From assembly GCA_015062485.1 (NCBI GenBank), contig SUUO01000001.1, positions 82,101 to 146,100 on the forward strand: 64,000 bases of DNA, written 5' to 3'. Origin of the DNA: Alphaproteobacteria bacterium (GTDB taxonomy: Bacteria > Pseudomonadota > Alphaproteobacteria > Rs-D84). Both the position numbers and the translations under genes were made by a program. The notes under the pieces were generated by a model that searched no databases, had not been told where the DNA came from, and saw nothing but the letters and a program-made list of their open reading frames with translations. This document shows, piece by piece, positions 4,165 through 45,984 of the stretch (positions are counted from its first letter, which is position 1; each line of letters begins with the position of its first letter).

Positions 4165-4203
4165 GCCCATATCGGGCGTTTGATTTTTGTGGCGGAGTAA
4201 GAC
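4165..4203. repeat. terminator-like repeat module (copy 2)
   Basis: see 2287..2328. Confidence 0.5.
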
Positions 4204-4491
4204 ATTTCTACGGTCATTTGCATACAACATCAGGGAATTTACAGGGAAATTTTGCCATTTTTGTCCCAAAAACCAATTTTGCACTGCGCCCGAGTCGCAT
4301 ATTATCCACTTCCCGTAAAAAATTCCCTAAATAAATAACAGGGAATTTATTTAAAAAGTGCTATAATTTTGTTGATTTTCTAACTAATTTTTGGTATAAT
4401 ACGACCCAAGTTAAGCAGGCGATTTTATCGCCTTTTTTATTTGCCCTGCCTGATATCGGTGGGGCTTTTTTATTACAAAAAAGGAATAATT

Positions 4492-5142
4492 ATGAAAAAG
4501 TCACACATCATCATTTCTGACATAACATGTATGAAAGAAAAATTCTGTATTGCAGGTTTTGATACATATGAAAAACGCATGAAACGTCTGATGATAGACG
4601 GCGGTTATTGGAACGCTAATCAGATTCCGACCAAATATTGTGAAATATTGGTCGACAATGAAGAATTTAAAGAACCACGAGATTACCCACACCGAACCGA
4701 AGATGTCAACATAGATATTAAATCTATAGAGATTTTGCAAGAATTTGAACCAGGAAAAGAGTTGGCAAACGCACTAAAAAGCAGCATATCAAAAGACATA
4801 CAAAGTATATTCCATCATCATGTCAAAGAAAATGCTTATGTGCCACAGAAAACCAAATGTCCTTCGTTGGGCGCCATATTGATTCCGGCACACAACATTG
4901 AATTCTTTACGGAAGATGGCAAGCTACGCGCCCGCATTACTGACTATTCTAAACAATTATATGAATTAAAGGTCAGTTGCAAATACCTGCGTGATATATT
5001 TGAAAAAGATAAAGATGTCAAAAATCTGAATAATGCCATTGCCGCTAGTCAGTATGCTCATTGTCGTATTGGATTGGCACGCAAGTTCCTGATGCAGGAA
5101 AATCATTGCTATTTAATGTTAAACGGGTTATTTTTATACTGA
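4492..5142 (+). CDS. hypothetical protein (island cargo)
   Basis: 216 aa (MKKSHIIISD...) with AAGGA RBS; no motif recognised; AT-rich. Confidence 0.5.
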   Translation: MKKSHIIISDITCMKEKFCIAGFDTYEKRMKRLMIDGGYWNANQIPTKYCEILVDNEEFKEPRDYPHRTEDVNIDIKSIEILQEFEPGKELANALKSSISKDIQSIFHHHVKENAYVPQKTKCPSLGAILIPAHNIEFFTEDGKLRARITDYSKQLYELKVSCKYLRDIFEKDKDVKNLNNAIAASQYAHCRIGLARKFLMQENHCYLMLNGLFLY

Positions 5143-5143
5143 T

Positions 5144-5569
5144 ATGACAAAGATTTTTACAATTGGTTTTAGTGGCAAAAAGCCCGATGATTTTTTGGAT
5201 ATCCTGAATGCAGCCAAGATAAACTGTGTTTGGGATATTCGGCTTTGGCGCACCAGCCGCTTTGTTCCGTTTTACAGTGGCACAAATTTGGCCGCAACAC
5301 TTGGTTCACGATACGAATATCATCCTGAATTTGCCCCAACGACAGATATCTTAGCGAGCTACAAAGATGGTTGCATCACCTGGCCTGATTATGAACGTAT
5401 GTATAGGGAATTATTGGCCACTCGCAACCCAACTGCGGGACTTGCCTTGAACTCTCTTGACCGCATATGCCTGCTTTGCACCGAAAAATCCGCAACACAA
5501 TGCCACCGCCGCCTAGCCGCAGAATATATCGCAGAACAATTTCCAGACATCGAAATTGTGCATTTATAA
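5144..5569 (+). CDS. DUF488-like protein
   Basis: 141 aa. N-terminus IFTIGFSGKKPDDFLDILNAAKINCVWDIRLWRTSR and ...YEYHPEFAP fit the DUF488 pattern (TIGxS..EeF...L..vDVR..P.S....LGG). Translationally coupled to the upstream ORF. Confidence 0.45.
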   Translation: MTKIFTIGFSGKKPDDFLDILNAAKINCVWDIRLWRTSRFVPFYSGTNLAATLGSRYEYHPEFAPTTDILASYKDGCITWPDYERMYRELLATRNPTAGLALNSLDRICLLCTEKSATQCHRRLAAEYIAEQFPDIEIVHL

Positions 5570-5586
5570 ATGAATAATTTTAGCAC

Positions 5587-8500: not shown

Positions 8501-9369
8501 ATTCGTTTAATCGCTTGCAACTCATCTTTGTCACATTCATCAATAATTAATATAAACGGTTTATTTTGATCTAATGTTCTCAGAAACGGTATTAAAAAAA
8601 TTAGTTCGCATTTAGGCACATAAATTATTCTTCTCTTATCTTCTTTGGACATACGATTACACGCTTCCAAAACTGTGCGCGTTTTTCCTATTCCTGCCAA
8701 CCCACTAATATTAGATACTGGATTTTGTAATATACGAGCTTTTATCTCTTCAACAAAAGAATTTAGCCTATCATCTAATTGAAACTGATTTATGGCATCC
8801 CTAGCATTCCACTCATCAAGAGATTCGGCACCAACTTTAATCCACATCTCTCTCAAATCTGGCTTTAAATCGAAGATTATATCCTGATGCAAGTTAACCC
8901 AATTTTGCATATCTTCCGCATCTAGAAACACTGGGGTTGTGTTAGTAGCGCCAATATTATCTAGCTCATCTTGCATTGCTTTTATACGTGCTTCTTTAAG
9001 TTGTGATGGAATATGATCTTTTGTCGAAATAATAACAAAATCGTAGTCTGCTAACAATTTTTTGCACAATGCTGTATGGGCAGGACTAGCTATTTCCTCA
9101 GCACACTTGGCCGGCGACATACTCGTCGCCTTTAATTGAAAAATTGTTTGAGTTGACGGAATAAATTTATCTAGTACAGTTTTTATTTTACCATGTAAAA
9201 TGGCATCTATTCCCCCATCTCTAACGTTTTCGTTAGAACAGACCTCAAAATCCCAAGGCTTGAACCCCTCTGCAAACAACAGCTGTTTTGTGAGCCTAGT
9301 CAGTTCCACGTCATTTAAATTCTTAATAGTATCAATATCTATTTCATAGCAGCTCATATAATCTCCCAA
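5587..9369 (-). CDS. Mrr-like nuclease + P-loop (STAND-like) NTPase + long helical-repeat protein; Avs/antiviral-STAND-like defence candidate
   Basis: 1260 aa. aa51-55 DGGID and aa78-80 QLK match the Mrr_cat PD-(D/E)xK spacing. Walker A GLAGIGKT (aa223-230), Walker B ILIIDECD (aa273-280). About 950 aa of C-terminal repeats. ~35% GC. Confidence 0.6.
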   Translation of the reverse strand: MGDYMSCYEIDIDTIKNLNDVELTRLTKQLLFAEGFKPWDFEVCSNENVRDGGIDAILHGKIKTVLDKFIPSTQTIFQLKATSMSPAKCAEEIASPAHTALCKKLLADYDFVIISTKDHIPSQLKEARIKAMQDELDNIGATNTTPVFLDAEDMQNWVNLHQDIIFDLKPDLREMWIKVGAESLDEWNARDAINQFQLDDRLNSFVEEIKARILQNPVSNISGLAGIGKTRTVLEACNRMSKEDKRRIIYVPKCELIFLIPFLRTLDQNKPFILIIDECDKDELQAIKRIISGGQITLVTIDYDSYDDSEELKFNKLSNEVVAAIVKQIAPDLEEHMRAAVVKVADGFPRFAIHIAREIKEAMSRGETVKLGRFKDTDIYKLLLRDRTGECEPDTIKILRVLSLFTKIGCMPGMVSAGRRYSGMGLADPNEIDKIIEVFELDKNKVFEVYNEFSERKIIQQKGFSISVQPFPLAIYLAREWNDKTHPDMVNRYYKELPFALQERFMKKIKFLDNVREFVKYFIGDKTSPFSNAELLNSPSNELFGQLAEIAPDLAMNSLEYAFEGWTDDDMKDKISEHRRRIVWTLEKIMFHRDLYERAAALLFRLAKGENESIGNNATGVLVQTMQVFLAPTEASLEQRINWLRSLIPEFKQGKNIILKMIDKGLDNSGHYSCMAGAESQGARTLTYYKPKTWSEVGTYFDALGNILLEINNTADDELKKDLLKIIGNKTNPLLMNGLFEKYEPLVSSLLEKFPDYIPTFIANSRFNTDKGFEKLIEYRDRLLAKADRDLESLFELYIVPSEWDVAYFMETEDKLDFKHAHSLMKQKSEEIADAYLANPEHLYDSLPFFISKNAGNINDFASRIGSCITDYKEFVNRLMALHMAMDNDNYSLLAVAMHEIWKRDPSYIDGILTRILGDERWIAKNGIIRLIWVVHGGFLDPDVDSILDLIAQKKISLLQLQIGGLSINLRKSVDLERVISFLWGVYYTFGTDSCRFIVETLDYYQHSGNVLSEDCKKVVFDILAKTENILFIFKDPMSGHHVSNIIHKIDWNPEEALTIFDAFKTAAASDTYRGLQYNNDASKIIKNLIKKHPTVMLPHVLNAMAKEDSIWLSGWMGLLGDGFNGKYGASPYVFSMHLDQQIPEYLQSVDKNMQKNIRNCIMEIVSLLNNSCEQVDWSPIIKYFIDTAETKDELNIISSRINNYTWWGNTSDYYRQYVPLFQNLHEHPNPLVRMWAKDSLDWLNECIKQEVAKEEELGY

Positions 9370-9419
9370 AAAACGACTCTTATTGAGTAAGTATATATAA
9401 TATAATGTTCTAAAATCAA

Positions 9420-9660
9420 GCTATTAACATTCAACTTGATTTAATTTGTTTCTCGCGGTACACTTTCCTTGAATCCAATGGGAATTGGGTTCGGGGCTGT
9501 GGTGGCCCGCAGACGCGGCATTTGTCGTTAAAATCCCCCGACTTTGGTCGGGGAGCCGTTTGCTATAAAACAGGGCTTGCCCGAAGGCTGCGGAGCATTC
9601 GTTTGCTGACACCAACTCCCCGACCGTCAATTCCGTTGGCGGTCATTAATTTATAAAAAG
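9420..9660. other. structured non-coding leader upstream of the Avs-like gene
   Basis: hairpins ccccgactttggtcgggg and gggaattgggttc; motifs gaatgctccgcag and ccacagccccg shared with island-end blocks. Confidence 0.35.
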
Positions 9661-9670
9661 GGAGAAGCCA

Positions 9671-9919
9671 ATGGCAAAATCCGCAGGTGTATTACACTCT
9701 ACTATTGAGATTTCTGACAACATTCTGATTCAAGAAAGTACTTATTCATATATTGACGGTATAGACGCCAAAAGACCAAACGAAAAAACAGGCGTATCCA
9801 AACGCGGTTGGAGATGGCTTGGCTCCACAGAAGAAAGCAAAAAAGTCATTAATGGTGCTTTATGGATTGTGCGTGATATTTATATTAAGAACAGCAAAAA
9901 ATATAAGCTACCAAAATAA
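9671..9919 (+). CDS. hypothetical small protein
   Basis: 82-aa ORF with GGAG-like RBS. Confidence 0.35.
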   Translation: MAKSAGVLHSTIEISDNILIQESTYSYIDGIDAKRPNEKTGVSKRGWRWLGSTEESKKVINGALWIVRDIYIKNSKKYKLPK

Positions 9920-9930
9920 GGACGGATAAA

Positions 9931-10476
9931 ATGAAGAAGTTTAATCTATCTTTTTTAGCACTAGCTTTAACTGGGTGTATGGTACCAGATTACCCCGATG
10001 TCCCAAAATTGCAACCAGATTATACTGCCGACAATATAGAGGTATTGCAGGTTATTGATAACGATGAAATTCTTGCGTATTACAGGAATAACTTAGGGCA
10101 CTTTACAATAGACAACATGAAGTCAGATATTGTAGATGGTGGGGTGTATTCTGTAGACGGTGTAAAACAAGTTGGAGTATATCGCTATACGTCCGCATGG
10201 GGAACTGTAAAAACAGTTCCAGATTATACAATTCATAATGATATGGGACTAGAGGCAAAGTATAAGGAAGCGTTAGAAAAATACGACACAGACTTTCCAA
10301 AAGAAGAAAGAAAATATTACCAATCATTTTTTTGTGGCGGCGGTGCAACAATTGTTTATACACCACTTTCCGTATTATTTAGTCCAATATGTTTGTTAGA
10401 TAAAAATTGTTATTTTAAATTAAACTGTTTGTCTGATAGAGATAAGCGCGTTCCGTACAAAGACAGAAAAAGATAA
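9931..10476 (+). CDS. lipoprotein (hypothetical)
   Basis: signal peptide with lipobox LTGC. Confidence 0.55.
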   Translation: MKKFNLSFLALALTGCMVPDYPDVPKLQPDYTADNIEVLQVIDNDEILAYYRNNLGHFTIDNMKSDIVDGGVYSVDGVKQVGVYRYTSAWGTVKTVPDYTIHNDMGLEAKYKEALEKYDTDFPKEERKYYQSFFCGGGATIVYTPLSVLFSPICLLDKNCYFKLNCLSDRDKRVPYKDRKR

Positions 10477-10491
10477 AAAGTGGAAATAACA

Positions 10492-11058
10492 ATGAAAAAA
10501 TTATCGCCCGTTCTAACAATAATATTATTTGGTTGCGGATTGACTCAATCCCCTATATCCGACAATACAAAACCGAACATCCCCATAGAAAAACCATTGG
10601 CTAAATATCAAGAATGTATGGGATATTCTGATAAAACAATTATACACACAGAAGAAAGTCCAGGTAGATACATTGTCCTTGTTAGTGAAAAATCTGTTGA
10701 CCAACCCTGGACCAACAAGAAAGAGCAAGGACAAGTTTTCTATACCAGTTTGTTAGAATGTTCCGCAGGAAATTCTATAGATGAGTGCATGGACCAACAA
10801 CATCTTAGAGTTCGTAATATTGGCACAATGGATAAGTGGACGGTTGGGAGCATAAAACAGTTCAAAAATGCAGATTTTATGTTTGATAAAACCATACGCA
10901 CCGAAAGACTAAACGATGGCAGGTTTGTTGACATAACAAACTATTGTTATACAGATAGAAAAGATATAACCAAAAGTTATTGCGGTCACTTTGTTTATAC
11001 GGCCAACTGGCATTCTGAATGCAAGAACAAATTGATGGCGCCCGCCGACAACAAATAA
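10492..11058 (+). CDS. lipoprotein (hypothetical)
   Basis: MKKLSPVLTIILFGC lipobox; start at internal MKK. Confidence 0.55.
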   Translation: MKKLSPVLTIILFGCGLTQSPISDNTKPNIPIEKPLAKYQECMGYSDKTIIHTEESPGRYIVLVSEKSVDQPWTNKKEQGQVFYTSLLECSAGNSIDECMDQQHLRVRNIGTMDKWTVGSIKQFKNADFMFDKTIRTERLNDGRFVDITNYCYTDRKDITKSYCGHFVYTANWHSECKNKLMAPADNK

Positions 11059-11083
11059 TCAATGGGGCGAACACCCCATTGAT

Positions 11084-12535
11084 TCATGAATGTTGTACCA
11101 CATAATTTATACATTGTGTTAAGGCGTCAACTTGGTCTTTGTATTTACCATTAGGGAATCCTAATAGTTCTTTCTTGAAATCTGACAACCAAGGCGCCTC
11201 TTGTGGAAATCGTAATGTACCGTTTTCTATATAAGCACTAGCCCCCATTAATCTTGATGTTTTATCCGTATCAGGTTTTATTGGTTCAATTGCAAAATTG
11301 TATCCATGAGGGTCTCTTTGTGCCATTAGCATTTGTATCAATTGCGTTCCACTTGCCTTGTCTTCTATTAACAATCTTACCAAATGTCGTCCACCCATTT
11401 CATACTTCCAATAGCAATACACTTTTTCCACTTGTCTGATAAGGTCGGGCATTTCCCATTTGCCACGAACAACATCTAGCAGGTAGTATTTATACATATT
11501 GGATTCGCATGTCATCAATATAACACAGCAAGCGGAATATGCATTATTTGGCCCAGTTTTATTGGCGGTATCCCAGCTAAGGAAAATTCTGCGATACTTG
11601 ACAGGGTCTATGGATTCGCCCTGTGCCTTGGTATAGTAGTGCAGCCATGACTCTTTAATAATTCCGCCTTCTGGTGGACATGGATCTTGTTGATATTGAG
11701 CAACAAATGCATTTTCACCCATAGAGTTCTTTATGCTTGTTACAACATCCATATTTTCACGTTCTGCGTGCAGCAATTCGCCCTTGGCACGCGTAATTAC
11801 TCGCACTTTACCAGAAATGCGATTCTTGACCATCCAGTTTTCATCCTCGATTGCAATAATGGGCAGCTTAATGATATTGAACTGTTCACCCAACTCCAAC
11901 AAATGTCCAGTTAAATCATCCTGATGCAGACGTTGCATTACCAGTATAATTTTGCCATTTGCCTTGTCATTAAGACGCGAATACAACGTAGAGCCATACC
12001 ATTCATTCAATTTGGCACGCTGGGTTTCAGATGTTGCATCCACAGATTTCTGGGGATCGTCTATGATTATCCAATCTGCGCCACGACCGGTCAATGTTCC
12101 GCCAACAGATGTGGCTATGCGTCCGCCACCACGTGTGGTTGCAAAATCGTTTACAGCCTGCCTGGATTGATGCAGACGTGTCATTGGGAAAAGTTCACGA
12201 TACCAATCCGATTGCATAACGTCACGACAACTGATCGCGAATTTTTCTGCCAGTTCATCATTATAACTGACACAAAGGATTTGAGCCTTTGGGTTATGTC
12301 CCAGTATCCATGCCGGTAATGCGATTGAACATATCATACTTTTCATATACCGCGGTGGCATATTTATAATCTGGCGATTATGTCGCCCTTCGTACATATC
12401 CATAATTGCGTCACAAATGACATCAATATGCCAATTGTTCAGGTAATATGAACCAGGAGATACCTCGTTAAACACCTTTACCACAAAAGATTTAAAATCT
12501 GTGCGTAATATCGCATTCATAATTTCTTTATTCAT
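11084..12535 (-). CDS. phage terminase large subunit-like protein
   Basis: 483 aa; C-terminal RNaseH-like nuclease residues (KYKDQVDALTQ). Typical co-occurrence with upstream small protein and ParB-MTase in alphaproteobacterial phage elements. Confidence 0.6.
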   Translation of the reverse strand: MNKEIMNAILRTDFKSFVVKVFNEVSPGSYYLNNWHIDVICDAIMDMYEGRHNRQIINMPPRYMKSMICSIALPAWILGHNPKAQILCVSYNDELAEKFAISCRDVMQSDWYRELFPMTRLHQSRQAVNDFATTRGGGRIATSVGGTLTGRGADWIIIDDPQKSVDATSETQRAKLNEWYGSTLYSRLNDKANGKIILVMQRLHQDDLTGHLLELGEQFNIIKLPIIAIEDENWMVKNRISGKVRVITRAKGELLHAERENMDVVTSIKNSMGENAFVAQYQQDPCPPEGGIIKESWLHYYTKAQGESIDPVKYRRIFLSWDTANKTGPNNAYSACCVILMTCESNMYKYYLLDVVRGKWEMPDLIRQVEKVYCYWKYEMGGRHLVRLLIEDKASGTQLIQMLMAQRDPHGYNFAIEPIKPDTDKTSRLMGASAYIENGTLRFPQEAPWLSDFKKELLGFPNGKYKDQVDALTQCINYVVQHS

Positions 12536-12896
12536 TGTTGTTCTCCTTTAAATATTGTTTTAATATTTCTATGTCGTCCTGCCTAATAGCTGTGGCTGCT
12601 TTGGCAAGTTCTTCGTTTTTATTATCTGCTTCTGCCATCACAGGCAACAAAGTCTGCAACGCTTTTAAATCGCCTTGCACAGCCTTGTTTGTCGCCTGTA
12701 ATAGCATGGCTTGCTTTTTGCTTATTTTTACTGGCTTGCCATTTTTGGTCATTGGAATCTTTTCATTTACAATGTCATCCAGTAATTTATAAATATTTTT
12801 GCTGCCACTTGGTCGCCCCTTTGGGTTACCAGATTGGCCGGGTTTGAACTGTCCTGATTTAGGCGGTTTCATATAGCCCAATTCATAATCTGCCAT
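12528..12896 (-). CDS. small phage protein upstream of terminase (DUF5681/TerS-like)
   Basis: 122 aa, Lys/Gly-rich N-terminus; stop overlaps TerL start. Confidence 0.4.
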   Translation of the reverse strand: MADYELGYMKPPKSGQFKPGQSGNPKGRPSGSKNIYKLLDDIVNEKIPMTKNGKPVKISKKQAMLLQATNKAVQGDLKALQTLLPVMAEADNKNEELAKAATAIRQDDIEILKQYLKENNNE

Positions 12897-14200
12897 TACG
12901 ATACCTCTCGCTTTGCGGTTAATAATTCCGAATACGTTTTGCCAGACACTTGATGTACGGCATCGATATGAAACATTTCTAAAAACCTGCGGATAGCAGT
13001 ATCCACGTACAGTGGTTCCAGTTCAATGCCATAACAAATGCGTTTGGATTGGTGGGCGGCAATCAATGTACTGCCCGATCCAAGAAACGTATCCAACACA
13101 ACATCGCCACGCCGTGTGACGTCGAGCATCGCATCTTTCAGCATTTCAACCGGCTTTACAGTCGGATGCATTTGAATGTCTGACCTGTGCCTGCCGAACG
13201 CATTTACGCCCGCATACTGCCAAACATTTGTGCGATAACGCCCATTTTTACCAAGCTGAACATTATTGGTGTGTGATTCCTTGCCGTTTTTGAAAATAAA
13301 GCAGAGTTCGTGTTGACTACGATACAGACTGCCCATACCGCCCGAAGTCTTGCACCAAACACACATGTTTATCAGGCCTGAAAACGCGTCGGTTCCTGCG
13401 GACAATATTTCGCCCATGTGGCGCCAATCCATGAAATTGTACTGTAATGCCCCAGGGCGAGAATATTTCGCACACAATTCAAAGTTCTTGTGCAAAAACT
13501 GCGCGAACTCATCTGTACTCATCTCGCCAGATGCCATTTTAAACTCTTTATGCCGGATATTGCCCGAACTGCATACATGCCCTGATATTTTTACATTGTA
13601 TGGCGGATCTTGCAGAACCATATCTGCCTGACGCGTGCCAAGCAGCGTTTCAAAGGTCACAGCATCCAGACTGTTCCCGCAAATAATTCTATGGTCGCCA
13701 ATACACCACACATCACCGGGGCGTGTTACAATTTCGTTTTCTGGGATGTACGGCACATTATTTGCCTTGGAGTCCGCTGTCGTCCTATTATCCATAGTCA
13801 ATATATCCAGTTCAACATCTGAAAATCCCGTAATAGATACGTCCATATCGCCACAGATTTGTTCCAGTTCGGATATTTCTAACCGCAACAAATCCGCATT
13901 CCAACCACCGTTTTCGGCGATTTTGTTATCAGCCAGGCGATAGGCACGCTTTTGTGCATCTGATAAATGTGCCAGACGGATAACTGGCACGGTATCCAGC
14001 CCCAAAACTTGGGCGGCAGCCATACGACCGTGCCCGGCAATGATTTCCAGATTTTCGTCCACTAGTATCGGATTATTGAACCCAAACTGCTGAATAGATG
14101 CTGCTATCTGCTGGATTTGGCTTTCTGGATGATTTTTTGCGTTTTTCGCATAGGCGCGTATTTGATTTAGCGCCACGTTTTCTATTGTTAAAGTTTTCAT
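12896..14200 (-). CDS. ParB-like nuclease domain fused to DNA N6/N4 methyltransferase
   Basis: N-terminal ParB motif (GHGRMAAA). DPPY motif IV and FLGSGST motif I. Start taken at MKTLT with GGAG RBS. Confidence 0.75.
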   Translation of the reverse strand: MKTLTIENVALNQIRAYAKNAKNHPESQIQQIAASIQQFGFNNPILVDENLEIIAGHGRMAAAQVLGLDTVPVIRLAHLSDAQKRAYRLADNKIAENGGWNADLLRLEISELEQICGDMDVSITGFSDVELDILTMDNRTTADSKANNVPYIPENEIVTRPGDVWCIGDHRIICGNSLDAVTFETLLGTRQADMVLQDPPYNVKISGHVCSSGNIRHKEFKMASGEMSTDEFAQFLHKNFELCAKYSRPGALQYNFMDWRHMGEILSAGTDAFSGLINMCVWCKTSGGMGSLYRSQHELCFIFKNGKESHTNNVQLGKNGRYRTNVWQYAGVNAFGRHRSDIQMHPTVKPVEMLKDAMLDVTRRGDVVLDTFLGSGSTLIAAHQSKRICYGIELEPLYVDTAIRRFLEMFHIDAVHQVSGKTYSELLTAKREVS

Positions 14201-14386
14201 AAAAAAACTCCTTGGTTGTTGTTTAGATTGCAATACGGAGATTTTTTACTCGAATTGCTATATAATATACAGTGATTGCCAACTAGATTTTTTACAAACA
14301 CACAATATTTTTATAAAAACTTGATTTTCTGCTTGATTTAAGAAGCTTTGTAAGCAGTAATTGCACAACCCTAGAAGGAGGCATTT

Positions 14387-14887
14387 ATGGCAAAAATAGA
14401 ACTTCCAACTACACTGGATGCTCTGCGAGCAATGCCGTTTGCAGATCGGGCGACTCTTTGGGCTAAATACAGCCCACACCCATTCAAACGACAAATGCGG
14501 GCATTGTGGTACTATATTCAATGCGACCGCTTCAAACTGCGGATTGAACCAAAGTTCCTGACCAAGATAAAGAAATACAAAGACAATCCCACAGAATGTG
14601 TCACCCATGCGTATCATAATCGGTACTATATCCGTCCCGGCACGGTTATAACACGAACATTCCGCAGAATCATGCATGAAGTCATCGTCAATGACGACAA
14701 TACGTTCACGTATAATGGCGAAAAATATCGCACTTTATCCGCAATAGCCAAAGATATATCAGGCATCAAGATTTCGGGACCGGATTTCTTTGGCTTGTCA
14801 AAAAATTACAAACCAATCTTAATCAATAAAAACAATATGCATAGTAGAGCTGAAAAAAAATATACTTCTGCCCAATTTGCAAAATGA
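14387..14887 (+). CDS. DUF2924-like protein (recombinase-associated)
   Basis: 166 aa, AGGAGG RBS, directly upstream of the serine recombinase as is typical for DUF2924. Confidence 0.45.
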   Translation: MAKIELPTTLDALRAMPFADRATLWAKYSPHPFKRQMRALWYYIQCDRFKLRIEPKFLTKIKKYKDNPTECVTHAYHNRYYIRPGTVITRTFRRIMHEVIVNDDNTFTYNGEKYRTLSAIAKDISGIKISGPDFFGLSKNYKPILINKNNMHSRAEKKYTSAQFAK

Positions 14888-15078
14888 TCCGCTTTTCTAT
14901 CTGCCATGGCTATAGCAATACTCATTTCAATCCTATCTTGGACATCGGAAGACTTTTCATTATAGGTTGCAACGATATCTGCAATATTATTGTCCTGCTG
15001 TCTTGCCAACTTATTATTTTTGGCAGCAAACATAAAACCAGCAATAATACCTACAACCAAGAACAAATTAGAAATCAT
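14806..15078 (-). CDS. small membrane protein (hypothetical)
   Basis: 90 aa with two hydrophobic helices; overlaps the end of 14387..14887, so uncertain. Confidence 0.25.
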   Translation of the reverse strand: MISNLFLVVGIIAGFMFAAKNNKLARQQDNNIADIVATYNEKSSDVQDRIEMSIAIAMADRKADHFANWAEVYFFSALLCILFLLIKIGL

Positions 15079-15155
15079 GTATATCTCCTTTATTTATATA
15101 ACCTATTCTATAAGAACACAAAACTAGTATCAATTATAAAACCATAGGACTTAAA

Positions 15156-16745
15156 ATGACAATTAAATGTGCGATTTACACACGAAAGTCAACCGAGCAT
15201 GGACTTGATATGGAGTTCAATTCCCTGCAGAACCAAGAAGAGGCATGCAAGGCATATATTGCATCCCAATCATTCAATGGATGGCAATATTGTAAAACAT
15301 ACAGCGATGCGGCGATTTCAGGCGGAACTATGGAACGACCGGCATTAAAGCGAATGCTGGATGATATGGCACATGGGTTAGTAAATACTGTGGTAGTGTA
15401 TAAGGTTGACCGATTATCGCGTTCCATATTGGATTTTCATAAGATGATGCAGTATTTCAACAAGTATAATGCGAACTTTGTATCTATAACACAATCTTTT
15501 GATACCAGTACATCTATGGGTAAATTGACGCTGAATATGCTGTTATCATTTGCCCAGTTTGAACGCGAAGTTTCCAGCGAACGAGTACGAGATAAAATAC
15601 GTGCCAGTAAAGCCAAAGGCATATGGATGGGCGGCAATCCGCCGTTGGGTTATGATGTGATAAATAAAAAATTGATTCCGAATGAGGCTGAGGCCATGAC
15701 TGTTCGGACACTATTTGAAAAGTATCTAGAACTGCAATCTGTAAATGCACTGACCGAATATGCCGTGATGCATAATATATTCGCAAAACAATGGACGACA
15801 GCCAAAGGCATCACAAAGGGAGGCCGACCCATTGCCAAAATGAGTATGCATCGATTATTGCGTGACAGGATTTATATCGGCCAAATTGTAAACAAGACGA
15901 ATAATACTACTGCCCCGGGCGAGCATCAGGCGATATTACCCACAGAACTGTTTAATCGTGTACAAGCGGCCTTGCAAAACAACGCGAATAACAAGTCTGA
16001 AACACACGGTTCACCCAATTTGTTGACCGGCAAACTGTTTAATCACAACGGCGTACGCTTTACCAATCAACGAACATGTGGCAAAGGCAAAACCAACACC
16101 CATTATTATGCAACCCGTGGCTTTTATCTGCCAGCACCCCAGGTGGACGAAATCGCAATAAAAACCATAACGCGGTTCTCAGATGCAGATTTATCAGCGC
16201 TACCGTCCGCGACCGCAGATGCACTAAAATGCATTAACATCCAAAACGCGCCATACGCAGAAAAGAAAGCCTTTATTCAATCACTGATTGATAAGGTTAT
16301 ATACTCGCAGGATAAACTGATATTTTATCTGATACTAGACGTGGCAAAATTACAGTTGTTCGCGAAGGCCAACTTCATCAACCAGAAATCCGACCCGATG
16401 GAGTTCACGATCAGCGATAGACACATTGTAATAACCGTCCCAATCATCCTGCGTAAATACGTAAACACAGTGTTTGATAAAACCAAGAACGGTGTCCTGA
16501 CCATCACTGATAACAACCATCTAATCCTGAAAGCCTTCGCCACCGCTTGGCGATATCGTGAGATATACGAAGAATGCAGCGATGCAGACAAAATCATCGC
16601 ATCCGAACACACATCACCACGTCAGTTTTATAGATACCTTGACCTTGCATACATGAATCCAGAAACCGTCAACCGCATCCTATCCGGCGAACATAAAGTT
16701 AATGTTAAAGAATTGTTCCTGATTGCTAAAACTTCCAAAATGTAG
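15156..16745 (+). CDS. large serine recombinase (integrase)
   Basis: N-terminal resolvase domain AIYTRKST with catalytic Ser and VYKVDRLSRS; 529 aa with recombinase/zinc-ribbon extension. Confidence 0.9.
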   Translation: MTIKCAIYTRKSTEHGLDMEFNSLQNQEEACKAYIASQSFNGWQYCKTYSDAAISGGTMERPALKRMLDDMAHGLVNTVVVYKVDRLSRSILDFHKMMQYFNKYNANFVSITQSFDTSTSMGKLTLNMLLSFAQFEREVSSERVRDKIRASKAKGIWMGGNPPLGYDVINKKLIPNEAEAMTVRTLFEKYLELQSVNALTEYAVMHNIFAKQWTTAKGITKGGRPIAKMSMHRLLRDRIYIGQIVNKTNNTTAPGEHQAILPTELFNRVQAALQNNANNKSETHGSPNLLTGKLFNHNGVRFTNQRTCGKGKTNTHYYATRGFYLPAPQVDEIAIKTITRFSDADLSALPSATADALKCINIQNAPYAEKKAFIQSLIDKVIYSQDKLIFYLILDVAKLQLFAKANFINQKSDPMEFTISDRHIVITVPIILRKYVNTVFDKTKNGVLTITDNNHLILKAFATAWRYREIYEECSDADKIIASEHTSPRQFYRYLDLAYMNPETVNRILSGEHKVNVKELFLIAKTSKM

Positions 16746-17648
16746 CTATTGAGCGTTTTCGATAACCGATAACATAAACTCAGAAAACACCGCTGATGCA
16801 CCTACAGCTAACCGCGCATGCCTATCCAACATTGGCACACGCCTAGTTCCAAGTCCATGAGAGTCGCTAGCAATATTCCGTATATTAGAAATCGCATCAA
16901 CAATTTTGTTTAATCCAGATATCAGATTATTAATTTGCCTGTCGACATCTCCATCCTGATGCATATTGTAAAGATCTTTAACTTGCCTGTATAATCTCGT
17001 AATATCCCCTCTATCAGAAGGCGTTTCCCCTTTCTGCTCTATCGCGTAACAAAAAATTTCTTCTGTAACCGTTCTGGCCTTTGTTATGGCACTATCGTTA
17101 TTACCATTTGATATATCTTCAAACGCTCTATCAATTAATTGCCGTACATATTCTCTATCTATTCTATCCAAAGAAGGGGTTTCAACTGGAATTTCAACAT
17201 GTTGTGATTTTACATGATAGACACTACCTATTAATACCATTTCATTACCACTACACGATAAATACCCATTAATCTTTGATATAATGGTTGAAATTATTTG
17301 ATTGTATATGAAATCTATTTCATCAGGAGAATACCCACTAAATACATCCGTAAATCTTTCTTTTGAAAACATATATGTCAACAAATCTGAAATACGGTTA
17401 TTTTCGATACACCAATCTACTATCTTTTCCATATAAGCCCATCGACTTAAAGCCCCGCCGTAGGTATACGATAAAGCATACCCAAATCGACTGGCAATGT
17501 TACATATTGCAGAGCCCGTTAAATACGGCAATGCACACCTTACAGACCTACAATCGCTTTCTGATAATTTTATGTTATCAAAGTATGTATCCCCAATAAA
17601 AATATCCAGAATAAACCTGGCTTTTAATAAATCATACCGTTCATCCAT
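16746..17648 (-). CDS. Abi_C/HEPN-like abortive-infection candidate
   Basis: 300 aa; C-terminal R-x6-H motif (ISNIRNIASDSHGLG) typical of HEPN/Abi_C; AT-rich; att-proximal. Confidence 0.45.
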   Translation of the reverse strand: MDERYDLLKARFILDIFIGDTYFDNIKLSESDCRSVRCALPYLTGSAICNIASRFGYALSYTYGGALSRWAYMEKIVDWCIENNRISDLLTYMFSKERFTDVFSGYSPDEIDFIYNQIISTIISKINGYLSCSGNEMVLIGSVYHVKSQHVEIPVETPSLDRIDREYVRQLIDRAFEDISNGNNDSAITKARTVTEEIFCYAIEQKGETPSDRGDITRLYRQVKDLYNMHQDGDVDRQINNLISGLNKIVDAISNIRNIASDSHGLGTRRVPMLDRHARLAVGASAVFSEFMLSVIENAQ

Positions 17649-17876
17649 CTTACTTCACACCTATGTTTATTATTCTGTTGGTTATATAATGTCAACCTGA
17701 TGTTAATTCAATCCCCGAAGTGGCATCCATGTTTTGGGCAAGGTATGCAATGCGGGTGATTTTGGTAGGATTGTGCGCGATGCCGAGCATACACCAGTAC
17801 CATCGCGCAGAAAAACCCCCGGATTCTGGGGAAAAAGAAACATCCCGTGGGATTACCACGGGATGTTCAATATTCC

Positions 17877-17967
17877 TGGCGGAGACGAAGGGATTCGAAC
17901 CCTTGATACCCTTGCGAGTATACTACATTTCCAATGTAGCGCACTAGACCAACTATGCGACGTCTCC
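17877..17967 (-). tRNA. tRNA-Ser (anticodon GGA)
   Basis: 91 nt; 7-bp acceptor, anticodon loop TTGGAAA, long variable arm, T-loop GGTTCGAAT, encoded CCA. Confidence 0.9.
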
Positions 17968-23134: not shown

Positions 23135-24961
23135 CTAGCCCCGGCCCTTGTATTTTACGGTCCCAGAAGTTATTGGCAGGGTAAAACTAAAACCGCTGTC
23201 ATTGAATTTGGTCATCTTACTGACATAGCAATCGGTTATGGCACCGTCAACATCCTCGCTTCCTCCGGTACTGGTTGTGCCAGTGGGACACGGACTTGGT
23301 TCCACAGAATCCGCAGGACAGTAATAGCCGCCATCGCACGGGATTGGTTCTGAACTTTTTTCCGGGCAATAGAATCCAGCTGGACATTTTTCCTGGGCAG
23401 CACTGCCGGCGGGACAGTAATAGCCGCCATCGCACGGGATTGGTTCTGAACTTTTTTCCGGACAATAGTGCCCCGCGGGACACTGTGTTTGGGATGCGCT
23501 TTTGGCGGGACAATAATATCCGCCATCGCACGGGATTGGGGTTGTGGTCTTGACTGGGCAATAGTGGCCCGCATCACATTCGGTTTGAACATTATTTTTA
23601 CAATAATAGCCGGCCGGACAGTCCGTATAACTGGGGCTTAGGCTAACTTGATTACTGCTAAATTCACCAGATTGCGATTGTTCAATGGTCTTGAAATTAT
23701 CGCCAACGTTTATCACACGACCGGAATATGTCCAGTTTTTAAACAACTGACCACCGGGAACAGTGGTTGTCGGTGTATAATTAATCTCACAATTTGAATT
23801 ATATGTACACGTTTCCGTTTTATTGGAACCATCGGCATATTTTACCGTATAGTTTTTCCAAGAATATTGTCTGTATAAGTTTATTGTATCATATTCGTCT
23901 ATACTGCACTGCATAATACCGTTACAAGCGGTAATGATATCATCACTGTTGCTAAACGAATTTGTTGACCACATTGGTGCCCCACAAGCACTAGCACCGA
24001 TCCCATCAAGCATTGGGCAAAAATACCAACCAGTAAAATTTTGCTTGGGCACTGTAACGGTTACGACAGAATTCAAACTGGTCCCATCGTCACCGTATAC
24101 ACCATCTAAATCCAAATCGTATCCCGTGCCGGGCAGATATTTTATGTACCGACTGGATGTGGATGCAGAGGTACCAGTGTTCAAATAGATTTTATATGTT
24201 CGTTGCACACAGTTACGTTCCCCAATATTTGTGGTGTTCACCCGACCGGCAGTATCATAGTATCCGTATCCATCGTCACAGTCACAATTATTACCCGCGG
24301 CATTTGTGTGGGCGTTGGTACCACACGTGCCACAACCGTACATTTGACTGTCAACCATACCCGTATCTAGTATAAAAGTACTGGTTCCATCAGTATAATC
24401 ACGCTGATTAAGAACGTAAAACAGCCCATAATCCGAAGAGGTACTGGCCGCATACAGACGCACCAATCGGGTTTCACGATCAAATGTTCCCATAGAACAC
24501 TTTTCGCAACTAATCTGATAACGACAGTCTGATGTAGCATTTAACGCATTACATTTTGAGTTTATATAGAGTTTTAATCCATAGTCGGCGGGACACGAAA
24601 CCAAAATTGGGCAAAAACCATCCGTATTACCATATGCACGATAAGTGCCAGAGGAGTCAAGGTATTCTGTTGTAGCGGTTAGCCAAGAAATTGTAGGTTG
24701 AGTCTCTGTATAACTGGATACAAGAACACTATCAGTCAATGAATTGGTACACTCATAACACTTGTACGACAGCGGTCCATTGGTAAAATCGCGCGTATAT
24801 CCCCAATAGCACGTATAGGCATCCGATGCGCTGTTGCAATTCAACATAGTGTCATATCTCGTACATCCAGAGCCGGTTGTTCCCGTACCATCACCACCAA
24901 CAACCGCGAGCGCGCCGGATGTCACAAGGCAAAGAAAAGTCAGTAAAACTATCTTGTTCAT
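23135..24961 (-). CDS. secreted Cys-rich protein with tandem ephrin-receptor-like (GCC2/GCC3-type) repeats
   Basis: 608 aa, signal peptide; repeats CPAGHYCPEKSSEPIPCDGGYYCPA x4-5 near the C-terminus. Confidence 0.65.
   Translation of the reverse strand: MNKIVLLTFLCLVTSGALAVVGGDGTGTTGSGCTRYDTMLNCNSASDAYTCYWGYTRDFTNGPLSYKCYECTNSLTDSVLVSSYTETQPTISWLTATTEYLDSSGTYRAYGNTDGFCPILVSCPADYGLKLYINSKCNALNATSDCRYQISCEKCSMGTFDRETRLVRLYAASTSSDYGLFYVLNQRDYTDGTSTFILDTGMVDSQMYGCGTCGTNAHTNAAGNNCDCDDGYGYYDTAGRVNTTNIGERNCVQRTYKIYLNTGTSASTSSRYIKYLPGTGYDLDLDGVYGDDGTSLNSVVTVTVPKQNFTGWYFCPMLDGIGASACGAPMWSTNSFSNSDDIITACNGIMQCSIDEYDTINLYRQYSWKNYTVKYADGSNKTETCTYNSNCEINYTPTTTVPGGQLFKNWTYSGRVINVGDNFKTIEQSQSGEFSSNQVSLSPSYTDCPAGYYCKNNVQTECDAGHYCPVKTTTPIPCDGGYYCPAKSASQTQCPAGHYCPEKSSEPIPCDGGYYCPAGSAAQEKCPAGFYCPEKSSEPIPCDGGYYCPADSVEPSPCPTGTTSTGGSEDVDGAITDCYVSKMTKFNDSGFSFTLPITSGTVKYKGRG
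23300..23600. repeat. intragenic tandem repeat (~94-nt unit x3+) encoding the CxxGxYC repeats
   Basis: ccatcgcacgggattgg recurs at 23331, 23425 and 23520. Confidence 0.7.
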
Positions 24962-29075: not shown

Positions 29076-29220
29076 TTTATATCCTTTTTGTTTTGTTGTT
29101 ATTTAATTAAAGTCCGGACAGATAAATAATACAACACCCCGCCCCACCCCACAATATGCAAGAATTCCAAAATAAATAGTTTGTGTTTTATTAAAAACTG
29201 TTATATGATGCGCGTTATGT

Positions 29221-29297
29221 CGGGGTGTAGCTCAGCCTGGTAGAGTACTTGCATGGGGTGCAAGGGGTCGCAGGTTCGAATCCTGTCACCCCGACCA
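29221..29297 (+). tRNA. tRNA-Pro (anticodon GGG)
   Basis: 77 nt cloverleaf; anticodon loop ATGGGGT; CCA encoded; terminator 29306..29330. Confidence 0.85.
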
Positions 29298-29340
29298 TAT
29301 AAATTTAAACGGGTCTTGTACCCGTTTTAATTTATATCAG

Positions 29341-29480
29341 TGAGTATGTCGGTTCGATACATCGCAACGCAGTTGCCAGGTTCGACAATGAGTAAGCGAG
29401 AACGAACGCAGTGAAGTTCGAGTGCTAACGAATGCCCCGCAGGGCACAAGCCCGAGGGAATCCTGTCACCCCGACCATAC
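29341..29480. repeat. partial duplicate of the tRNA-Pro 3' end (gaatcctgtcaccccgaccata, 29459..29479) preceded by a conserved element-end block
   Basis: 21-nt copy of 29277..29297; block shares ggttcgacaatgagta, gaatgccccgcag and gaggg with 4019..4160; downstream terminator also duplicated. Confidence 0.6.
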
Positions 29481-29536
29481 TTCGCCAAGGCTTCGTATGA
29501 CAAGCCATATAAATTTAAACGGGGCTTGGGCCCGTT

Positions 29537-29986
29537 TTATTTTTTATAAATATCATATCCGCAATTGCTGCGAATCATATCGGCAATATGCATTTCCATT
29601 GCGTGGTGGCGACCGGTCTGGATTGCACACGGATCACAGGTGCGACGCAATTGGCCCGCGCGACACATAAATGGAACACCATCACAATATCCGGTTATTC
29701 GCGTTAAAACCGCATCATTGGAATATGCATCTGCAATCGTTTTATAGCGTGTGGGGATAAGTTCCTGGTTAAATGACCACATACGTGATACCGCGTCACG
29801 GGTTTGTTTCACACACGGATCATTATTCATAATGTACGTTATATTTGTACTGTTGAATTTTTGGGTGTTGTATCGATCAAGAATAAGCCAGGTGACAATA
29901 CTGGCACAGGTAACCGTTACCATAAACAATAAAATATAGTGTGCAATTGTAAAGACATTGGTTTGATATTCCATATTCTTGGCCAT
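29537..29986 (-). CDS. membrane-anchored hypothetical protein with Cys-rich C-terminus
   Basis: one TM helix; GGGGGG SD before MAKNMEY start. Confidence 0.4.
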   Translation of the reverse strand: MAKNMEYQTNVFTIAHYILLFMVTVTCASIVTWLILDRYNTQKFNSTNITYIMNNDPCVKQTRDAVSRMWSFNQELIPTRYKTIADAYSNDAVLTRITGYCDGVPFMCRAGQLRRTCDPCAIQTGRHHAMEMHIADMIRSNCGYDIYKK

Positions 29987-44744: not shown

Positions 44745-45218
44745 TTATTTCTTTTTTGCACATTTTTTTGCGCACGCTTTTTTTGCAACTGGTTTTGCAG
44801 CAACTTTTTTAACTGCAACTTTTTTCGCCGCTGGTTTTGCAGCAACTTTCTTCGCAGGTGCTTTTTTCGCAACCGGTTTTTTAACCGCTACTTTTTTCGC
44901 TGGTGCTTTCTTTGCAACCGGTTTTGCGGCTGGTTTCTTTGCAGGTGCTTTTTTTGCAACTGGTTTTTTAACCGCTACTTTTTTTGCAGGCGCTTTTTTC
45001 GCAACTGGCTTTTTTGCAGCAACTTTCTTTGCTGGTGCTTTCTTTGCAACCGGTTTTGCAGCAGCAACTTTTTTCGCAGGTGCTTTTTTTGCAACTGGCT
45101 TTTTTGCAGCAACTTTCTTTGCTGGCGCTTTCTTTGCAGGTTCTTTTTTTGCAACCGGTTTTGCGGCTGGTTTCACAACTGCTTTCTTTGCAGATTTTTT
45201 GAACAGGCCAAAGACCAT
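44745..45218 (-). CDS. histone H1-like Lys/Ala/Pro-rich DNA-binding protein
   Basis: KKPVAKKAPAKKVAAKKP repeats; GGAGAG RBS at internal Met; tandem 60-nt DNA repeats. Confidence 0.7.
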   Translation of the reverse strand: MVFGLFKKSAKKAVVKPAAKPVAKKEPAKKAPAKKVAAKKPVAKKAPAKKVAAAKPVAKKAPAKKVAAKKPVAKKAPAKKVAVKKPVAKKAPAKKPAAKPVAKKAPAKKVAVKKPVAKKAPAKKVAAKPAAKKVAVKKVAAKPVAKKACAKKCAKKK

Positions 45219-45327
45219 ATTTCTCTCCTTCTCTTCTATTTTTTGGATAGAACAAATTTGTTTTGTTCTTACTTGGTATTTTATATGAATATCAAAAATT
45301 AGTAAAGAAGAAAGTGAATTTTTTTTC

Positions 45328-45984
45328 TTATGAATATAATTTTTTAAAACCATTTTCTATTTTGCGTATGTATTCAGCATCACCATCACGCCAATATTTT
45401 GGATCACGCATCATACGTCGCAAATCTGAATCCGTTAAATTTTTTATTTCATTTTTTTCGGTTTCAACATTTGGTTCCATTGATTGCATCATACGATAAA
45501 TGCCTTGGATTCCCTGGGGTGAAGAGCACAGCTCATCAAATGCATCGGCGGGTAAAAACTTTTTTCCAAACGCATCAACCGCACGCAATGCATCATTCAT
45601 TTTTTCCGTTCCACCGAAAAAGTTTTTTAATTCTGCAAGTGCATTTTTTTCATTTTGCGTGTTGTATAAATCTGATATCACAGGCGCAAGAAATTCATTT
45701 GCAATATCATAAATTTTTTCAACCTGGGTTGATGTTAATCCAATTTCGTGAAATTTATTTTTTAAATTTTCATCATCAAATATTTCATTTGTTGGATATT
45801 CATCAGATGTTTCCGGCACACCAATCGCACGATTAAAACGCGCACGCACGTTTTCATCACATCCATCGGTTGGCACCGTTATCATTGTTCCAATTTTGCG
45901 TTCAAGTTCTGAATAAGATTTCATCAATGCATCTGCGTTTAATGTGCCGTCTTCGTTTAAAAATTTTTCTGGAACTTTATCCAT
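45328..45984 (-). CDS. hypothetical protein (possible phage scaffolding protein)
   Basis: 218 aa acidic/helical; position before capsid-like gene. Confidence 0.3.
   Translation of the reverse strand: MDKVPEKFLNEDGTLNADALMKSYSELERKIGTMITVPTDGCDENVRARFNRAIGVPETSDEYPTNEIFDDENLKNKFHEIGLTSTQVEKIYDIANEFLAPVISDLYNTQNEKNALAELKNFFGGTEKMNDALRAVDAFGKKFLPADAFDELCSSPQGIQGIYRMMQSMEPNVETEKNEIKNLTDSDLRRMMRDPKYWRDGDAEYIRKIENGFKKLYS

Follow-up and report, generated by a model that had tools for sequence, protein, structure and literature searches.

We analysed a 64,000-nt stretch of an Alphaproteobacteria bacterium assembly (GCA_015062485.1, contig SUUO01000001.1, positions 82,101 to 146,100; GTDB lineage Rs-D84), hereafter called the window. 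The DNA that follows its tRNA-Pro(GGG) gene, 29298-29547, represents a complete member of a family of elements that is apparently undescribed and for which we use the name tRNA-tail; 3960-4189, at tRNA-Ser(GGA), is a second copy. As judged from alignments, a unit, which lies behind its tRNA, consists in order of a terminator-like hairpin (T1), a 5′ arm, a hairpin (P0) in "long" units, a core (core E), a copy of that tRNA's 3′ end, an optional hairpin that sequesters CCA, and a second terminator-like hairpin (T2). The whole unit is ~170-250 bp and encodes no protein. Selection appears to maintain its core as a single strand that is functional when folded and is most likely RNA; covariation, invariant junction nucleotides and strand-specific G.U and G.A pairs are the marks of such a folded strand. 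We hold with moderate confidence that the unit is a non-autonomous element that recombined into tRNA 3′ ends and whose core works as such a strand.

At the tRNA-Pro locus the tRNA gene is intact and its 3′ end is found twice. The repeat, GAATCCTGTCACCCCGACCATA, runs from T-loop G57 to CCA plus 2 nt and is 22 nt long (29278-29299 and 29458-29479); an earlier interpretation made without database searches (the sequence-only reading) had recognized this duplication but gave its length as 21 nt. The same reading had described the downstream terminator as duplicated, and indeed 29295-29337 and 29505-29547 are 88% identical (repeat family D16), both copies being terminator-like in a terminator scan. 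Its description needs one correction, as a 30-nt hairpin module (29475-29504) separates the second tRNA-Pro end from the second terminator. Modules of the same design, CCANN-CUUCG-stem-CUUCG-N'N'UGG, but with other stem sequences are found in seven other loci (L045, L086, L119, L039, L043, L055 and L061). No plausible open reading frame (ORF) was found in the unit, which has 160 bp between the repeats; the longest overlapping ORF, of 58 aa (29327-29503, minus strand), overruns both ends. An exact-protein look-up of the 158-aa neighbour gave no match. Five conspecific metagenome contigs carry the identical arrangement, and the acceptor part of the copy varies among conspecific contigs, reading CAACGGUGACCA or CUACGGCGACCA. 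In one of these contigs a 203-aa methyltransferase gene (L001, 3060-3671) is inserted 5′ of tRNA-Pro; it is absent from the window and the four other contigs.

The block between the two tRNA-Pro ends has a relative in the window. An exact 16-mer, GGTTCGACAATGAGTA, is common to it and the minus strand of 4091-4106, the only other match in the window having 3 mismatches, and the two blocks also share GAATGCCCC[G/A]CAG and CGAGGGA. The sequence-only reading had proposed that the intervening 118 nt share motifs with 4019-4160, and these were found on the minus strand of 4018-4160, directly before a partial tRNA-Ser 3′ end (4004-4017); their order, and their orientation towards the partial tRNA end, are the same in both blocks. 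Alignment of the junction blocks gave a local score of 32, against a maximum of 25 in 500 dinucleotide shuffles. With a covariance model built from 65 distinct cores of the family, exactly two copies of core E were detected in the window, and the next match has an E-value of 0.27.

To describe the family, one genome per species was scanned with the pattern GGTTCGACAATGAGN{25,50}GAATGCC, which gave at least 125 matches in at least 117 loci; the same pattern gave 109 matches in 105 metagenome loci. Among the genome-scan matches listed, five are obvious chance matches in coding sequence, and nearly all listed loci are from Candidatus Enterousia or other metagenome-assembled genomes (MAGs) of gut Alphaproteobacteria (ruminants, horse, chicken, human). 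Core E is present in more than 220 copies in Enterousia-like gut Alphaproteobacteria. The covariance model identified 116 copies in 100 loci. Some of these are divergent, and some form tandem arrays with up to three members, as is also seen in L184.

The units are closely associated with tRNA genes. In oriented loci the core motif is located 60-90 nt 3′ of a tRNA gene; a tRNA was found at most 100 nt upstream in 74 of 112 units among the genome loci listed, and at most 110 nt upstream in 71 of the 109 metagenome matches. A search for the same block at other tRNA loci, as the earlier interpretation had suggested, found it behind tRNAs of ~20 anticodons: Pro (GGG, CGG, UGG), Tyr, Gln (CUG, UUG), Arg (ACG, CCU, UCU, CCG), Ser (GGA, UGA, CGA, GCU), Lys (UUU, CUU), Val (CAC, UAC), Met and Asn. 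Each core is followed by a copy of the last 14-20 nt of its own tRNA, including CCA. The copy tracks T-loop variants, so that GAGGGA followed by UUCC, GUCC or ACCC corresponds to GAUUCC, GAGUCC or GAACCC in the tRNA. In relatives, an intact tRNA with a direct repeat of its 3′ end was seen for 63 of 92 core-bearing tRNAs.

The core is 81-97 nt long and is built in a constant order: GGUUCGACAAUGAGUA, stem P2 (7-9 bp, two inner pairs and a small loop), GUYAS-GAAUG, CCNC, RCAG, the variable hairpin P3 and (UG)CGA-GNG-A. The 16-nt block GGUUCGACAAUGAGUA and a 7-nt block are invariant in 65 of 65 sequences, and the conserved stretches include GAAUGCC and CGAGGGA. GGTTCGA always precedes CAATGAGTA in the alignment, and conserved family sequence (5′ arm, P0) extends 5′ of that motif. 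A P0 hairpin of at least 4 bp can be formed in 47 of 51 distinct long-type 5′ regions, with ~30 different stems. "Short" units do not contain P0 and read ...GGAUGAGAACC-NNN-GGUUCGAC, where GAACC can pair with GGUUC.

Covariation supports the predicted fold. The RNAalifold prediction contains P2 and its inner pairs, the basal part of P3, and P3a, in which CCNC pairs with GNG; double compensatory changes are seen in 9 of its 12 pairs. For a 15-pair model, double changes are seen in 12 pairs, 88.1% of cells are paired (69.0% in shuffles) and the covariation score is 0.508 (0.172 in shuffles, at most 0.143 in slid controls); none of 500 shuffles reached either value. P3a is CCCC/GGG in 58 sequences, CCAC/GUG in 5 and CCGC/GCG in 2, and pair 62-100 is CG in 58, AU in 5 and GC in 2. 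In the tRNA-Pro core, CCC at 29436-29438 is predicted to pair with GGG at 29456-29458. Modelled pairs include 18 G.T against 6 A.C (p=0.02) and 95 G.A/A.G against 3 C.T, and the two central P2 pairs are UA+UA in 26 sequences and tandem GA+AG in 25. As the G.U and G.A pair types are asymmetric between the strands, the folded strand is probably the tRNA-sense strand. Whole units of the tRNA-Ser(GGA) and tRNA-Gln(UUG) groups are 84-89% identical between species versus 70-74% for aligned upstream coding flanks, the flank identity being taken from BLAST synteny; this contrast is not general, since other tRNA groups are near 70%.

The second copy lies at the distal side of a 13.7-kb island at tRNA-Ser. 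The island is flanked by an 8-bp repeat, TGGCGGAG (4190-4197 and 17877-17884), and Pfam matches identify a large serine recombinase (15156-16745), a terminase large subunit, a ParB-N6/N4 methylase, an Abi_C protein, DUF5681 and DUF488; a 1260-aa protein (5587-9369) has no Pfam match. In the island-free locus L090, tRNA-Ser(GGA) is directly followed by 83 nt identical to 4107-4189 (minus strand) and then by core and copy, and the same 83 nt are nearly identical behind island-free tRNA-Ser(GGA) in L094, L109 and L121. Because these relatives carry the tRNA and the unit but no island, the island must have been inserted between the two later and independently, and by this sequence comparison it is not part of the core E family. 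The sequence-only reading had connected the tRNA-Pro block with the end of the tRNA-Ser island. The homology of the blocks is real, but the block at tRNA-Ser belongs to a resident unit and not to the island. A 57-nt repeat (77% identity; 2297-2353 and 4171-4227), of the form TTGTATG...TA-CTCCGCCA plus a terminator, has one copy at the island's distal junction and the other 3′ of an ABC-F ATPase gene (2366-3793); an earlier event at this tRNA-Ser end may have left it behind.

Several observations indicate how the units came to lie at tRNA ends. T1 starts directly after the CCA of the tRNA. When units behind one type of tRNA are compared between genomes, T1 and the 5′ region prove conserved and T2 is often unrelated, most clearly at tRNA-Gln(UUG) (L030, L045, L048, L074, L079 and L091). 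The left part of the copy is element-specific (e.g., GAAUUGAGUGCGC versus GAAUCCGUGCGC in the tRNA) and its last 8-15 nt match the tRNA, as in AUUGAGUGCGC versus AUCCGUGCGC of tRNA-Gln(UUG), AUACUUCG versus AUCCCUUCG of tRNA-Ser and AUCAGCUG versus AUCCAGCUG of tRNA-Gln(CUG). In L121 the copy retains the allele of another species (CUUCAUCUCC), the adjacent tRNA reading CUUCGACUCC. Empty orthologous sites were found for tRNA-Pro(GGG) in L130, where the 3′ end is identical and the upstream flank syntenic, for tRNA-Val in L044 and for tRNA-Ser(CGA) in L135. Flanks upstream of the tRNA are syntenic and those 3′ of the unit usually are not. These patterns fit a crossover within the last nucleotides of the tRNA, as in integrase-type integration.

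Single genes are present between or after units in some loci: a methyltransferase (L070, 4899-6300), an HNH-domain protein (L127, 4458-6088) and an alpha/beta hydrolase (L113, 1394-3310). The cargo of L070 interrupts the tRNA-end copy of the first unit, an arrangement reminiscent of a cassette array. Distal tRNA-end copies beyond the cargo were sought in L127, L123, L097, L085 and L038, and none was found within the 8-kb pieces.

The 5′ arm starts right after the T run of T1, often with UGG, and resembles the antisense of the tRNA 3′ end up to T-loop positions 59-60, reading GGAU there, or GGAC if GU is present in the tRNA. Many relatives have a longer arm that is a degenerate antisense copy. 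As DNA, its identity to the antisense of the last 16 nt is barely above background (5.5 for the own tRNA, 4.8 for other tRNAs). As an RNA duplex with G.U allowed, the arm pairs with its own tRNA end at -15.9 kcal/mol, compared with -11.8 for tRNAs of other amino acids (Wilcoxon p=6e-12), and the own tRNA is in the top 5% of duplex ranks for 45% of units. This inverted complementarity is thus specific, yet it is weak in many units; in L126, a near-identical conspecific of the window tRNA-Pro unit, the own-tRNA duplex rank is only 0.88. The arm might form a helix with the downstream copy, which would close a four-way junction, or else reach across T1 to the 3′ end of the real tRNA.

The layout is not restricted to core E. 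The window tRNA-Glu(UUC) gene (62721-62796) is followed by a unit with a different core of ~170 nt, whose fold (z=-3.9) is closed by arm and copy. Homology of this core to the tRNA-Pro and tRNA-Ser blocks was considered and rejected, as the similarity is not significant in a shuffle test; it is a separate core in a shared layout. Relatives of the tRNA-Glu-type core occur in L066 (after an E-type unit at tRNA-Ser(CGA)), L081 and L103, and a third core type is found in L127 (4490-4610). A downstream copy of the tRNA's own end is also present at four of 23 bystander tRNAs that lack core E. As other cores and bystander tRNAs show it, the layout is more general than any one core.

Searches for known relatives and partners gave little. 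Only the four tRNAs of the window pass the Rfam gathering thresholds, and at E<=10 nothing relevant, and no HEARO or IS605-orfB RNA, was matched over 29100-29700 and 3800-4400. ARAGORN reported no tmRNA, the Rfam tRNA and tmRNA models do not match the unit, and the core is not in Rfam 15. The bare 16-mer had 17 matches in IMG/VR (2.9 million viral contigs), all in unrelated coding sequence, and BLAST against phages and plasmids gave no match. No downstream protein recurs (the first downstream ORFs form 68 clusters over 90 loci), and among the 25 most-shared families listed no recombinase, transposase or reverse transcriptase Pfam family is present in two or more of 148 representative neighbours. 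No integrase, Xer-type site, Y1/HUH transposase, IntI, TnpB, IscB or IS110 gene was seen next to units, and no larger element carries the core in the 222 loci examined. Our literature searches did not turn up any account of a small, conserved and structured core that has an antisense copy of an adjacent tRNA 3′ end on one side and a sense copy on the other. Three candidate readings of the folded unit were discarded: a K-turn in P2 (the bulge is on the wrong side and Rfam gives no support), a known ribozyme class (no Rfam support), and a degenerate tRNA 5′ half with a T-loop intron in the 5′ region (no D- or anticodon-arm similarity, and the arm begins with the CCA complement).

In the model that we favour, recombination inside the last ~8-15 nt of a tRNA gene would bring the element in. 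The element would give the tRNA a new 3′ end with CCA and T1, and the original 3′ end and terminator (T2) would be displaced downstream. The recombinase would have to act in trans, since none is encoded in the unit. The weakest step of the model is how the core then works: most likely an RNA would be produced from the tRNA promoter by read-through of T1 and would fold into a multi-helix junction closed by arm and copy. Because the unit ends in a tRNA 3′ end, with the same CCA and terminator as the tRNA, tRNA end-processing enzymes could trim this RNA and define its 3′ end. It would then act as a tRNA-specific mimic or partner of the acceptor end. RNA is favoured over DNA because the junctions are invariant, the stems covary and the interior is more conserved than the ends, as in RNA motifs.

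A number of observations weigh against this model. No sense-strand promoter-like site was found in a scan and the terminator-like T1 stands between tRNA and unit, so transcription depends on read-through. The minimum free energy of the core does not differ significantly between sense and antisense. The helix of arm and copy is weak in some units, including the window tRNA-Pro unit, where only GUAUGUCGG pairs. The nearest-neighbour core is at a different tRNA type in 39% of cases, showing that cores can be exchanged or spread between tRNA types, for which the model offers no mechanism. Truncation, or loss of the tRNA-end copy, is seen in some units (L111, L038, L085), and selection on the units is therefore not universal. 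Finally, a function as folded DNA explains the same covariation.

This last point leads to the first alternative, namely that the units are miniature mobile DNA in which core and arms act as folded single-stranded DNA, either as a site of the attC or CTXphi attP(+) type or like IS200/IS605-derived palindrome-associated transposable elements (PATEs) and REPINs. Arm and copy would mimic the double-stranded tRNA 3′ end, or an HUH or tyrosine enzyme would act in trans, and no RNA function would be needed. We consider this rather unlikely, though several features suit it. An integrated CTX-type element has an inverted arm, a loop of ~100 nt and a sense copy, and the order tRNA, T1, inverted arm, ~100-nt loop, sense copy, T2 of the unit matches it. 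The hairpins covary on one strand only and are subterminal: 9 nt separate P2 from the GGTTCGA|C junction, which is invariant, and 7 nt separate P3 from the right end. CCNC, which flanks P3 on its 5′ side, pairs with GNG at the terminus, like the pairing of guide and cleavage site in IS608. Tandem arrays with occasional single genes (the L070 methyltransferase, the L127 HNH protein), empty sites, an arms layout common to three unrelated cores and the obstruction of transcription by T1 point in the same direction. Against it, none of the integrases, Xer-type sites, Y1/HUH transposases or IntI genes that such an element would use was seen near units, and no match was found in viral contigs, phage records or plasmids. 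Moreover, conservation is highest in the interior and lowest in the arms, the reverse of miniature inverted-repeat transposable elements and attC sites; the alignment has no attC R-box (GTTRRRY) at the stem base; and a sizeable minority of units have a weak arm or none.

A second alternative takes the core as a scaffold RNA and the adjoining 18-nt tRNA-derived copy, or the antisense arm, as the guide of an unlinked protein, like the right-end RNA (reRNA) of OMEGA/TnpB systems or a bridge RNA; the protein would recognise tRNA genes or tRNAs beside the universal T-loop GGTTCGA. In IS200/IS605-TnpB systems a scaffold is joined to a guide that is identical to the target flank next to the transposon-adjacent motif. 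Here, too, a scaffold is followed by 16-20 nt identical to the target flank, the target is preceded by an invariant TTCGA that is replaced by GAGGGA in the unit, and the invariant, predicted single-stranded blocks would suit protein binding. But no TnpB, IscB or IS110 gene is seen beside any unit, Rfam gives no match to HEARO or IS605-orfB RNAs, the presumed guide can be base-paired by the 5′ arm and the intact adjacent tRNA gene would itself be targeted. We regard this alternative as improbable.

The sequence-only reading had offered two possibilities, the scar or minimal remnant of a related tRNA-targeting element and a very small satellite. That the unit is a decayed attachment site or arm remnant of a deleted integrase-bearing island related to the tRNA-Ser island now seems very improbable. 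Partial tRNA genes are well-known integration footprints, and a tRNA 3′ end that is directly repeated is the classic sign that an island has integrated (PMC9897764; tycheposons, bioRxiv 10.1101/2020.12.28.424599); the second copy, moreover, lies just inside the distal repeat of the 13.7-kb island. However, the same tRNA-Ser unit is present in relatives that lack the island, which for its part possesses a separate 8-bp repeat and a serine recombinase. Comparison with relatives shows the identical arrangement, with an invariant and covarying core, in more than 100 species-level genomes without a larger element, an outcome that the sequence-only reading had itself named as refuting it. The scar was rejected also because double-stranded integrase arm sites would not yield covarying helices. 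The satellite fared better, as the unit has the footprint of a tiny element linked to the 3′ ends of tRNAs. A fortuitous similarity, or a tandem duplication that simply arose locally in the tRNA-Pro 3′ region, would account for the 88% identical terminators, but with covariance-model E-values of 1e-20 and 1e-23 and hundreds of homologous copies at other tRNAs its probability is negligible.

Among known systems, the units can be placed beside islands that an integrase inserts at tRNA 3′ ends (P4-like islands, tycheposons) and derivatives of these that lack an integrase (CIMEs, cis-mobilizable elements). They are alike in the intact tRNA with a downstream direct repeat, the supply of a replacement 3′ end, the tandem accretion at one tRNA and a recombinase in trans. 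They differ in that the unit is only ~170-250 bp, has an extra inverted arm and no cognate autonomous element that we could find, and has an interior that is a covarying, invariant core, the same at ~20 anticodons, rather than a set of protein-binding arm sites. A tyrosine-integrase island would have an integrase gene between the repeats, which the unit has not. For a CIME, attachment sites or arms common with an autonomous element were not found, and the sole nearby island (4198-17876) has its own repeat and a serine recombinase.

With attC and CTXphi attP(+) the units share a strand-specific structure, arrays with single-gene cargo and, putatively, imperfect inverted repeats around a loop of ~100 nt. 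They have no IntI, attI or R/L boxes and no dif/Xer context was seen, their stem copies a tRNA end, and their loop is highly conserved, unlike the attC variable loop, which is not conserved in sequence. They are similar to PATEs, REPINs and TnpB reRNAs in that their hairpins are subterminal, the stretch 5′ of the right hairpin pairs with nucleotides at the terminus, TTCGA forms an invariant pentanucleotide-like motif where the left junction lies, and a scaffold is joined to a flank-derived 3′ segment; in contrast to these, no TnpA, RAYT or TnpB was seen near units and the target tRNA stays intact beside the unit. As in tRNA-like RNAs (the tmRNA domain, and the acceptor/T-arm minihelices on which RNase P and the CCA enzyme act), the closing helix has as its 3′ strand a genuine T-stem/acceptor strand that ends in NCCA. 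GGUUCGAC of the unit resembles GGAUUCGAC, found in tmRNA 5′ regions, a similarity that we mention as a lead only. Unlike tmRNA, the unit has no coding part and the identity of its helix changes with the neighbouring tRNA. Orphan RNA motifs such as HEARO, GOLLD and ROOL, often found near tRNAs, are likewise defined by covariation and invariant junction nucleotides and linked to tRNAs or mobile DNA, but core E is much smaller and has an antisense copy of a tRNA 3′ end on one side and a sense copy on the other. That the element is categorically new, rather than a non-autonomous element associated with tRNA ends or an orphan structured RNA, seems to us doubtful.

The family is a well-supported structured element with hundreds of copies and clear covariation in uncultured, genome-reduced gut bacteria, and its linkage to tRNAs, with one core for ~20 anticodons and each copy carrying the 3′ end of its own tRNA, is like that of no known element. 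If the core is RNA, it is a candidate mimic of tRNA ends or a candidate guide; if it is DNA, it represents a new kind of miniature site-specific element. In either case the family accounts for many "partial tRNA" matches in these genomes, and the extra tRNA 3′ ends could serve as integration sites for islands; the L070 cargo interrupts a copy, and the tRNA-Ser island of the window used the tRNA. We also entertain, tentatively, that the family is a new class of tRNA-directed RNA in which a scaffold is flanked by antisense (5′) and sense (3′) segments of the tRNA 3′ end. It would either lead an unlinked protein to tRNA genes or tRNA 3′ ends beside the universal T-loop motif, for RNA-guided homing or recombination at tRNA genes, or be an isoacceptor-specific mimic of the acceptor arm. 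If so, the layout common to three or more unrelated cores would stand for a general principle, not recognised before, by which tRNA-linked elements are built.

Features of the tRNA-tail units and the associated island in the window (CM, covariance model; MFE, minimum free energy)
Feature	Position	Strand	Basis
tRNA-Pro(GGG), intact, encoded CCA	29221-29297	+	ARAGORN; Rfam tRNA 61.2 bits
T1, terminator-like hairpin directly 3′ of tRNA-Pro; stem-loop 29307-29327	29298-29337	+	terminator scan; 88% repeat of 29505-29547
5′ arm of tRNA-Pro unit; GUAUGUCGG (29344-29352) can pair with CCGA(C)CAUAC ending the tRNA-end copy	29338-29353	+	MFE fold
P0 hairpin GCAAC-GCA-GUUGC, just 5′ of core	29354-29366	+	hairpin common in long-type units
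Core E, tRNA-Pro unit	29379-29459	+	CM match 75.4 bits, E=1e-20; covariation
Core E, invariant GGUUCGACAAUGAGUA	29379-29394	+	
Core E, P2	29395-29426	+	
Core E, AAC-GAAUGCCCCGCAG	29427-29442	+	
Core E, P3 hairpin	29443-29452	+	
Core E, CGAGGGA	29453-29459	+	
tRNA-Pro 3′-end copy, identical to 29278-29299	29458-29479	+	sequence
Extra 30-nt module after the copy, hairpin CCAUA-CUUCG-CC-AA-GG-CUUCG-UAUG, sequesters CCA	29475-29504	+	sequence
T2, terminator-like hairpin, stem-loop 29517-29537; presumed original tRNA-Pro terminator	29505-29547	+	repeat; terminator scan
tRNA-Ser 3′-end copy (4004-4020; 14 nt identical to tRNA) and terminator T_C (3960-4003)	3960-4020	-	sequence; repeat family D14
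Core E of resident tRNA-Ser(GGA) unit	4021-4106	-	CM 85.5 bits, E=1.2e-23
Terminator T_B, 5′ arm and P0 (GCCACGAUAGUGGC, 4110-4123) of tRNA-Ser unit	4107-4189	-	identical in L090
Island, 13.7 kb, between tRNA-Ser (17877-17967) and resident unit	4198-17876	-	Pfam; sequence; island-free relatives
tRNA-Glu(UUC) unit, different ~170-nt core	62797-63075	+	repeat family D17; sequence
tRNA-Glu unit, T1	62797-62833	+	
tRNA-Glu unit, 5′ arm GCAGACCCAACCGGAUACG, antisense of tRNA-Glu 3′ end	62839-62857	+	
tRNA-Glu unit, copy GUUGGGGCUGCCA, 13 nt; then T2 to 63075	63030-63042	+	

Some minor observations concern the family outside the window. Divergent core sub-families (GGUUCAAAACAAGUA ... GGUUUCCCC) are found in L084 (1100-1930, minus strand), L103 (2046-2126), L189 and L204. 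The same loci have fused double modules, in which CGAGGGA is directly followed by AAACAAGUA-P2'-GUCACGGUUUCCCC; this sequence arrangement suggests that the core domain was duplicated. Core copies were also detected on contigs binned as Bacteroidota, two from Muribaculaceae MAGs (L101, L105) and one from a Bacteroides fragilis bin (L132). The cores of L101 and L105 are the most divergent ones (35-40 bits). The contigs are either mis-binned alphaproteobacterial sequences or indicate a wider host range.

Other repeats in the window are located in or near genes. A gene made of 15-, 27- and 45-nt repeats (families D1 and D2; 44745-45353, minus strand) appears to encode a Lys/Ala-rich, histone-H1-like protein. 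Three tandem 96-nt repeats with 65-81% identity (23313-23600) lie inside an ORF of 608 aa (23135-24961). Dispersed repeats of 40-214 nt with 73-98% identity are located about the starts and ends of paralogous genes (1954-2167/49526-49739, 32637-32761/52998-53122 and 33472-33511/53835-53874).

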